11,065 bases of DNA from IMG/VR virus record IMGVR_UViG_2660238078_000006. One strand, 5' to 3'. Position 1 is the stretch's first letter. The number at the start of each line of letters is the position of its first letter. Position numbers: made by a program. The DNA comes from a virus. Lineage: Duplodnaviria; Heunggongvirae; Uroviricota; Caudoviricetes. Below are positions 1-3,000 of this stretch, piece after piece.

Positions 1-3000
1 TCAGGGAAAAATATCATCAGATGGCTGCTTAAAAAAGAACAAATGGTAGTGTCCGCTATTGCCAGTACACCTCAAAGAGAGTAAATCAAACCGCGCAATT
101 GGCGTTGCGCTGAATGATACTGCATGTCGCGTATTGAAAAAACAAATCGGAAATCATCACCGTTGGGTATTTGTGTACAAGGAAAGCTGTACCAAACCAG
201 ACGGAACGAAAGCGCCAACAGTAAGGAAGATGCGGTATGACGCAAACACAGCCTGGAAAGCGGCGCTGAGACGGGCTGGTATTGATGATTTCAGATTTCA
301 CGACTTGAGACACACCTGGGCAAGTTGGCTGGTTCAAGCCGGAGTCCCGTTATCAGTGTTACAGGAAATGGGAGGCTGGGAGTCTATCGAAATGGTTCGT
401 CGATATGCTCACCTCGCACCTAATCACCTTACCGAACACGCACGGCAAATAGACTTGATTCTGAACCCATCGGTCCCAAATTTGTCCCAGTCAAGAAATA
501 AGGAAGGTACTAATGATGTGTAACTTATTGATTTAAATGGTGCCGATAATAGGAGTCGAACCTACGACCTTCGCATTACGAATCTGTAGCACCAATCATA
601 ACTATCTGTTTTAGCAAGCATTAACCGCATTCACTAAGATATAGTTGATGGCACAAACAGAAAGTTGATGAATGATGTTGCCATATATATGTCACAAATA
701 CGGCACAACGATCTTCAAACATATAGCCACACATTCACAGAAGAGCACAAAGCCTTGCAATCCAGTGCAAAGATTTGTGTGCCAGAGTTTTTCTCATCAA
801 CTACCGCAAGTATCGATCGATTGAGACTTGGATGATAGACTTCATGCCTTTGATTATTAGCTGATAGAAGAAATGTTAAAGCTATTTGCAAAGTACACAT
901 CTATAGGCGTGCTGAACACACTTATACACTGGGTGGTTTTTGGTGTATGTATCTATGCCGCGCATACCAATCAGGCTATGGCAAACTTCGCAGGTTTCGT
1001 TGTGGCTGTGAGTTTTAGCTTCTTTGCGAATGCAAAATTCACATTCAAAGCATCAACTACAACGATGCGCTACATGTTATATGTCGGGTTCATGGGAACA
1101 CTGAGTGCTACTGTTGGATGGGTTGCTGATAGATGTTCACTTCCTCCAATTGTCACTCTTGTTACCTTCTCCGCCATCAGCTTGGTGTGCGGTTTCGTCT
1201 ATTCAAAGTTCATTGTCTTTAGGGATGCGAAATGAAGATATCTCTTGTCGTTCCTGTCTTCAATGAAGAAGAAGCGATACCAATTTTTTATAAAACGGTA
1301 CGTGAATTCGAAGAGTTGAAGCCATATGAAGTAGAAATTGTTTTCATAAATGACGGAAGCAAAGACGCTACGGAGTCAATCATTAACGCTCTGGCTGTTT
1401 CTGATCCGCTAGTTGTTCCGCTGTCATTTACACGCAACTTTGGTAAAGAACCAGCATTGTTTGCAGGGTTAGACCATACAACCGGCGATGCCGTGATTCC
1501 AATTGATGTTGACCTGCAAGACCCGATTGAGGTTATTCCTCATCTTATTGAAAAGTGGCAGGCAGGTGCTGACATGGTGCTTGCTAAACGTTCAGACCGC
1601 TCAACTGATGGACGGCTGAAACGTAAGACAGCTGAGTGGTTCTATAAATTACACAACAAAATAAGCACCCCAAAAATAGAGGAAAATGTCGGAGATTTTC
1701 GACTCATGTCTCGTGAGGTTGTGGAGAACATTAAACTATTGCCTGAGCGCAATCTTTTCATGAAAGGCATACTGAGCTGGGTTGGTGGTCAGACAGATGT
1801 CGTTGAATATGTACGCACAGAGCGTGTTGCTGGCATCTCAAAATTTAATGGCTGGAAATTATGGAATCTGGCACTGGAAGGTATCACAAGTTTTTCAACC
1901 TTTCCTCTTCGCGTATGGACTTATATAGGCTTGTTTGTTGCAAGCATTTCATTTTTATATGGTGCATGGATGATTATAGACACCATTGTCTTTGGTAACC
2001 CAGTACGCGGGTATCCCTCCATGCTTGTATCAATACTTTTCCTGGGTGGAGTGCAACTGATCGGGATTGGTGTTCTCGGTGAATATATAGGTAGAATTTA
2101 TTTAGAAACAAAATCAAGACCACGGTACTTAATTAAAAGCAGAAAATAACAGGATGATCTTATGAAGATATTCATAATGCGCAATTGGCACAAGATATCA
2201 ATTTTTATACTTGCATTTACTTTGATTTGGCTTAGGCGCATTGACATTTTGACAAATGCCCAGTTTTGGGCTGAGGATGCAGTTTTTTGGTATAAAGATG
2301 CATACGAACAAGGTTTTTTCAGTTCACTCATAACCCCAAGAAATGGTTATTTTCAAACAGTATCAACACTCATTGTTGGTGCGACGACATTTATTAATCC
2401 AATTTACGCACCATTATTATCAAACTTTTTTGGAATAATAATTAGAGCTATAATTATATGGTTCTTATTTACCGATAGATTTAAATTCCTAAGCACCACA
2501 TCAAAAATCTTCATCTCTGTATATTTAATTTGCATGCCCGGGCTTGATGAAGTCCAAGCCAATATAACAAATGCTCACTGGTATTTATCATTGTATGTTG
2601 CAATGATAATAATATCTGAAGAATCCAAGTCAAAATTATGGAAAGCACATGATTTATTTTTTATAGTATTATCTGGATTGAGCGGTCCATTTATTATATT
2701 CATAATTGCATCATCTGTTTTTAAATATTTACACTTATCAAAAGGAGTAATAAGCATAAGAGGTTTATACTTATTTTATACTCGACTGCCATATTTGGCA
2801 ATGATCTTGTGTGGGCTGATACAGGCAACATCAATAATTCTTACATTTAATGGAACAAGATCACATGCTCCATTAGGATTCAGTTTTGATGTTATGTCAT
2901 CTATAATATCATCTAATGTATTTCTTTTTTCATTTGTCCCTTGGAATATCGCTAATGCTGGATGGGATAATCACCTTTTATCGTACACACTATCAACTTT

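Follow-up and report, generated by a model that had tools for sequence, protein, structure and literature searches.

Phages that carry a tyrosine integrase and target a tRNA gene exchange strands within a common core, and this regenerates the tRNA gene at one of the two junctions. The integration of SfX and SfI has been mapped in the proA-yaiC region (Sun et al., 2011; BMC Microbiol 11:269; PMC3306764). The attB region reads proA-thrW-'putative phage int'-IS600-IS629-yaiC, and IS600, IS629 and the 'putative integrase gene' are conserved host genes of this region in a serotype Y strain (PMC3306764). Sequences are printed there for attB, attP(SfI), attP(SfX), attL, attR and the SfI/SfX junction, and the attL of the SfX lysogen 036_X (panel D) shows the reciprocal junction experimentally. 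The same study connects gtrX with serotype X-type modification. SfX is a podovirus, and the 46-base att core of SfI, SfII, SfV, SfX and P22 has been printed in a second study (PMC3636060).

We analyzed a stretch of 11,065 nucleotides from a Caudoviricetes record (IMG/VR IMGVR_UViG_2660238078_000006), hereafter the window, in which an integrase frame, an att core and gtrA follow one another. A reading made from the sequence alone had taken positions 524–872 for an uninterrupted phage attP. It had concluded that the DNA belongs to a phage or episome, to a prophage integrated by another route, or to a tandem integrant. Our comparisons indicate that 524–872 is in all probability the attR of an SfX prophage at thrW in a Shigella flexneri-type chromosome. 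SfX converts the serotype of its host and belongs to the P22-like phages. The junction is already known, as it was sequenced and published in 2011.

The att core and its two flanks

The core, ATTCGTAATGCGAAGGTCGTAGGTTCGACTCCTATTATCGGCACCA, lies on the minus strand at 538–583 and equals the published 46-base core (PMC3636060). Even with ≤3 mismatches allowed it has no other match in the window, and shuffling gave no match either (0/200). Alignment to an annotated E. coli tRNA-Thr(CGU) gene gave 46 identical positions out of 46, covering the 3′ 46 nt including the CCA, so the proposed identity of the core with the 3′ part of thrW holds without a mismatch. As expected for an attP, the core is thus the 3′ end of the target tRNA gene, and it is unique in the window.

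That no tRNA 5′ half stands beside the core was also correct. ARAGORN found no tRNA in the whole window, and the Rfam tRNA model gave 15.7 bits against a gathering score of 29. An Rfam scan of positions 1–1500 (E ≤ 10) returned sub-threshold matches only, namely this tRNA match together with OxyS, miRNA and other matches at chance level. A degenerate tRNA 5′ half at 584–613 was considered and rejected, as its match to the thrW 5′ half is limited to 9 of 30 positions and ARAGORN is silent. The copy in the window is a dead, partial and promoterless tRNA 3′ copy, and the working thrW is regenerated at attL.

The sequence common to the SfX attP and the S. flexneri thrW site is longer than the core. 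A stretch of 64 bp (520–583), made up of the int stop codon, a 14-bp spacer and the core, is 100% identical over 64 nt between the window, the thrW-side sites of two comparison loci (L001 and L025) and the SfX record. The chromosomal site and the SfX attP thus have 64 bp and not 46 bp in common, which the earlier reading had overlooked.

An integrase frame ending at 523 and a gtrA gene beginning at 873 do flank the core, as had been described, but the integrase is a stump. The window opens with the right end of an IS600 element of the IS3 family (1–74, plus strand), which ends …GCCAGTACACCTCA at 74. Annotated IS600 copies from hundreds of E. coli genomes match this end at 94–96%, and a 399-aa IS3-type transposase is encoded directly to its left in CP020339.1 and related chromosomes. 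Integrase homology starts at 75, so that the remnant, int′ (75–523, plus strand), abuts the IS600 end at 74/75. It is the 3′ fragment of a tyrosine integrase of the SfI/SfII/SfIV/SfV type, with a surviving length of 449 bp. Only the last 148 codons and the stop codon (521–523) are left of an integrase of ∼387 codons; the first ∼240 codons are gone, including box I (arginine) and the N-terminal regions of full-length relatives. The listed open reading frame, 59–523, starts at a TTG inside IS600.

The lineage of the stump is not that of SfX. Positions 75–583 share 97.8–98.8% nucleotide identity with the int genes of SfIV, SfI, SfV, SfII and phi458, and every one of these matches ends at 583. Identity to P22-type int is ∼81% at the nucleotide level and 85% at the aa level, while int′ and the SfX/HK542-type Int share 60.7% aa identity. 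Neither the SfX record nor HK542 has a nucleotide match to the window left of 520. We conclude that int′ is a resident chromosomal fossil and not the SfX int.

On the other side of the core, positions 584–794 represent the SfX-type non-int attP arm (P arm), which is phage-derived according to its identity to SfX and HK542. At its 3′ end, the SfX record U82084 agrees with positions 520–820 at 100% identity, and 520–794 share 97.5% identity with the annotated attP region of phage HK542, with similar matches to mEp213, HK446, mEpX2 and HK75. Since the annotated attP of HK542-type phages includes the same arm, 584–794 is a genuine phage attP arm. The two arms thus come from different phages, the right one being 100% SfX and the left one of the SfI/II/IV/V type. 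The sequence lineage changes precisely at the core, which is the pattern that site-specific recombination of two unlike partners should leave.

A repeat search found, on the right arm, two direct copies of AGTTGATG(R) on the plus strand (642–650 and 663–671) at a 20-bp spacing and a third, inverted copy at 794–802. The motif AATGATGT occurs once on either side of the core, at 512–519 and at 671–678. Both kinds of repeat are candidate sites for Xis or for arm-type binding of Int.

The region from 738 to 872 (plus strand) is common to gtr clusters in other prophages and is presumed to be the promoter or regulatory region of gtrA. E. coli P22-like prophages at ybhB-bioA match the window from 738/740 onward, and SfII-type gtr copies match it from 749. 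These P22-like prophages lie between ybhB/bioA and the phage body (e.g., in strain PapM-32-1), which is the region of the lambda attachment site. They carry the same gtrA-gtrB-gtrX-like module at 93.6% identity (738–4409 of the window against 6001–9672 of locus L003). The module homology begins at 738–740 and the HK542-type arm match runs up to 794, which leaves a mosaic boundary of ∼55 common bp. A consensus scan of 430–950 gave no strong sigma-70 site upstream of gtrA, and one weak terminator-like hairpin was found on the minus strand (772–753) in a scan of the same region. The gtrA upstream region of the window has only two GATC sites (710–713 and 815–818), and an imperfect direct repeat of 19 nt, TTGAGACTTGGATGATAGA/TTGATTATTAGCTGATAGA (821–868), lies just 5′ of gtrA. 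Phase variation of the Dam/OxyR type has been described for Salmonella gtr operons.

The genes that follow are those of an SfX gtrABC serotype-conversion cluster placed directly beside the att site, with gtrA, a GT2 gtrB and a type-specific third gene. On the plus strand are gtrA (873–1235; 120-aa product, PF04138 GtrA_DPMS_TM), the bactoprenol glucosyltransferase gene gtrB (1232–2149; 305-aa product, PF00535 Glycos_transf_2) and gtrX, encoding the type-specific glucosyltransferase of SfX (2162–3427), which is 100% identical over 1266 nt to L05001.1. The P22-like tailspike gene of the SfX prophage follows on the minus strand (3494–5254; PF09008 Head_binding product) and is found in the same place in sister loci. 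After the tailspike come gp16/gp20/gp7/gp14-like ejection and head-completion genes, and the phage body runs on rightward. A P22-like tailspike and ejection genes beyond gtrX fit the description of SfX as a podovirus (PMC3636060).

Two further observations concern the phage body. Between the tailspike gene and the gp16-like gene are an open reading frame for a 179-aa HNH_3-domain protein and an Arc/Mnt-like open reading frame (5267–5806 and 5905–6198); this segment has the position of the P22 immI region, and its length and content vary among the sister genomes. A run of 78 N at 10,279–10,356 stands where CP020339.1 has 10 nt (gcaggtctgc). A frameshift in the gp7-like gene (open reading frames 9722–10,255 and 10,252–10,482) was considered but rejected, the run of N being an assembly-gap or masking artefact.

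Chromosomal context and the unoccupied thrW site

The window is 99.99% identical to the 4.65-Mb chromosome CP020339.1, with one gap in 10,279 nt and then 709/709 matching positions. To the left of the window this chromosome carries rdgC…aroL, proC, yaiC (371 aa, MASE2 and GGDEF domains), an IS element and IS600. The same junction is present in CP001383.1, which is the S. flexneri serotype Xv strain 2002017 (PMC3306764). We assign CP020339.1 to S. flexneri because of this identical junction and because of the IS600 and yaiC/proA context. This match argues against a phage or episomal origin of the record. When the whole window was compared by megablast with phage records and complete E. coli genomes, no record covered ≥80% of the window and only mosaic partners were found.

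The stump also occurs where there is no prophage. The exact 154-aa product of the int′ open reading frame is found together with IS600 at three empty sites (L019, L023 and L025), where int′ is followed by an intact tRNA-Thr(CGU) gene and proA-proB-phoE-crl. Aligned to the window, these loci agree with it as far as the end of the 46-bp core, int′ and the 14-bp spacer included; from there on, the thrW 5′ half takes the place of the SfX arm. Window positions 490–583 are identical to L019 and L025 and match the printed attB as well (panel A of PMC3306764). Since IS600-int′ is found beside intact thrW at empty sites, it is resident DNA downstream of thrW. One flank of the junction is thus the phage attP arm (520–820 of U82084; panels C and E of PMC3306764), as expected for an attR, and the other is the DNA beside the unoccupied attB. 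The sequence-only reading had looked for decisive chromosomal DNA immediately next to 584; a chromosomal flank does exist, but it lies at and to the left of 537.

The IS600-int′-core stump is also found beside other inserts in four loci (L016, L017, L020 and L022), with int′ at 6001–6465 in each, and the thrW/int′ site has thus been used repeatedly. The insert at the stump is a 390-aa acyltransferase gene in L016 and L020 and a P4-type integrase island in L022. In L017 the stump is joined to a cluster of gtrA, gtrB and a 417-aa gtr gene with myovirus tail genes, and an SfX-type arm adjoins the core.

At the far end of the prophage in L009, L012 and E. coli G4/9 there is an SfX-type int (98.7–99% to U82084), followed by the core inside an intact thrW and by proA. 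By its sequence, this thrW-intX end of the sister genomes is the reciprocal attL; the window itself stops ∼10 kb into the prophage.

The junction can also be compared directly with the printed sequences. The reverse complement of 506–887 aligns to the attR of 036_X (PMC3306764) with 377 matches, 0 mismatches and three indels of 1–4 nt. The same three indels are present in the attP panel of that paper, and at least one of them is a typing error, since the supplement has GGTTTCGA against GGTTCGA in PMC3636060. The published SfX attP, on the other hand, departs from the window left of 520.

Origin of the junction and competing explanations

From the observed sequence identities, breakpoints, chromosomal context, empty-site layout and match to the published attR, we infer an order of events and a position for strand exchange inside the core. 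An older SfII/SfV-like phage would have lysogenised the lineage first. IS600 would then have inserted into the int of this older prophage, the remainder of which was probably lost. This would have left the resident order yaiC-IS629-IS600-int′-thrW-proA in S. flexneri. SfX would have come later. Beside the int′ remnant, its Int recombined attP, made up of the P arm, the 46-bp core and the intX arm, with the chromosomal thrW at its 3′ end. Of the two products, attL consists of proA, the full thrW and intX and lies outside the window; attR joins the gtr-bearing P arm of SfX to the core and then to the DNA previously downstream of thrW. The int′-core-gtrA order formed in this way mimics an attP, but its arms come from different phages.

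The relative age of int′ might, however, be the reverse. In a recent double lysogen, a phage of the SfII/SfV/SfI type would have entered the SfX att site in tandem and would since have been mostly deleted by IS600, which would make int′ the younger part. Such arrangements do occur. In L007 a full-length int (387 aa) stands directly left of the same core and the SfX gtr cluster, and on that side of the core there are also gtrB, a 486-aa gtr of the Glucos_trans_II family and tail-fibre genes. E. coli G4/9 has the order lambdoid prophage int, core, gtr prophage, int and thrW, and tandem lysogens of SfI and SfX have been made experimentally (PMC3306764). But the IS600-int′ junction, with the same 154-aa open reading frame, is found at the prophage-free thrW-proA sites (L019, L023 and L025) and beside other inserts (L016, L017 and L022). 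For the serotype Y strain, moreover, IS600/int is drawn among the conserved host features, and the second phage of the experimental lysogens, SfI, entered at attL on the thrW side and not at this junction (PMC3306764). A recent double lysogen is therefore very unlikely, and the int′ stump most likely predates SfX, as the same junction occurs at empty sites and beside other inserts. Of the possibilities first raised for this record, tandem integration nevertheless came closest. SfX does adjoin what is left of an earlier prophage, and real tandem arrays are found in L007 and G4/9.

It is hardly conceivable that the window comes from a free, circularised or episomal phage and holds its genuine attP, even though the int-like sequence, core and gtrA are contiguous, their order is that of Salmonella phage VSe13 and of the published SfX attP, and the arm at 584–794 is a bona fide attP arm. 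A full-length cognate integrase does not adjoin the core, since the int of 148 codons ends at IS600 and differs in lineage from the SfX Int, and because int is truncated by IS600 a free phage genome is excluded. The flank fits the published attR and not the attP, the near-complete identity is to a chromosome with yaiC and proC on the left, and none of the phage records searched joins an int of the SfI/II/IV/V type to an SfX-type arm. The phage phi458, with an int 98.8% identical to int′, was examined as a source of a natural attP and discarded; it is without the SfX-type arm and has its second core copy in unrelated sequence. Insertion by another route that left attP intact (IS-mediated or homologous recombination, or a secondary site) has next to no probability as well: several IS elements do lie around the region and L006, L008 and L015 carry rearranged versions of it, but the int′/SfX breakpoint coincides exactly with the core, as exchange by Int at thrW would predict, the int-side arm is not that of SfX and the reciprocal thrW-intX junction is present in sister genomes.

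With integration at thrW as usual for this phage, the window can be placed as part of a chromosomal SfX prophage with gtrX, located in a genome of the S. flexneri type, in its proA-yaiC region. For annotation this calls for some caution, because an int-core-gtrA arrangement in a chromosome can be an ordinary attR where a reused site has kept an int stump. Such an arrangement is not by that alone evidence for an episomal phage or for an unusual route of integration.

The S. flexneri 'attB' may be regarded as a BOP′-type site, since a fossil int arm occupies the downstream side of thrW. It is a rather unlikely prospect that, with the 'attB' being of this type, the hybrid site (SfX P arm, core and SfII/V-type P′ arm) is competent for recombination; the repeats AGTTGATG(R) and AATGATGT in the arms are the only hints in this direction that the sequence offers. 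If it were true, hybrid junctions might alter Xis dependence or directionality. This might also help to explain why the order in which phages infect determines the double lysogens, and hence the serotypes, that can form.

Comparison with described attachment sites

The attR of S. flexneri 036_X (Additional file 1, panel E of PMC3306764) is the closest counterpart of the junction described here. It has the same start of gtrA(SfX), P arm, core, spacer and int end, and the neighborhood of IS600, IS629 and yaiC is the same as well. The three indels are the only difference, and nothing of substance separates the two.

The attP of SfX and of HK542-type phages has the core, the 14-bp spacer, the int stop codon and the non-int arm (520–794, or to 820) as in the window. 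HK542-type lambdoid phages use a thrW/CP4-6-type attachment site. Left of 520 the SfX attP continues into the SfX-type int (CTCGCATTTAAGTA… in the orientation of the paper), whereas the window continues into the SfII/V-type int stump, CACATCATTAGTACC…. P22 has the same 46-bp core and the gene order int-att-gtrABC-tailspike, but the non-int arm of P22 and VSe13 is unrelated in sequence to 584–794.

The tandem SfI-SfX lysogen 036_1d, E. coli G4/9 and L007 likewise have the 3′ end of an int, the 46-bp core and the gtrA arm of another phage. All three represent a hybrid POP′-like site in a chromosome. In these cases the left prophage is large or complete, whereas the left side in the window is reduced to 449 bp of int.
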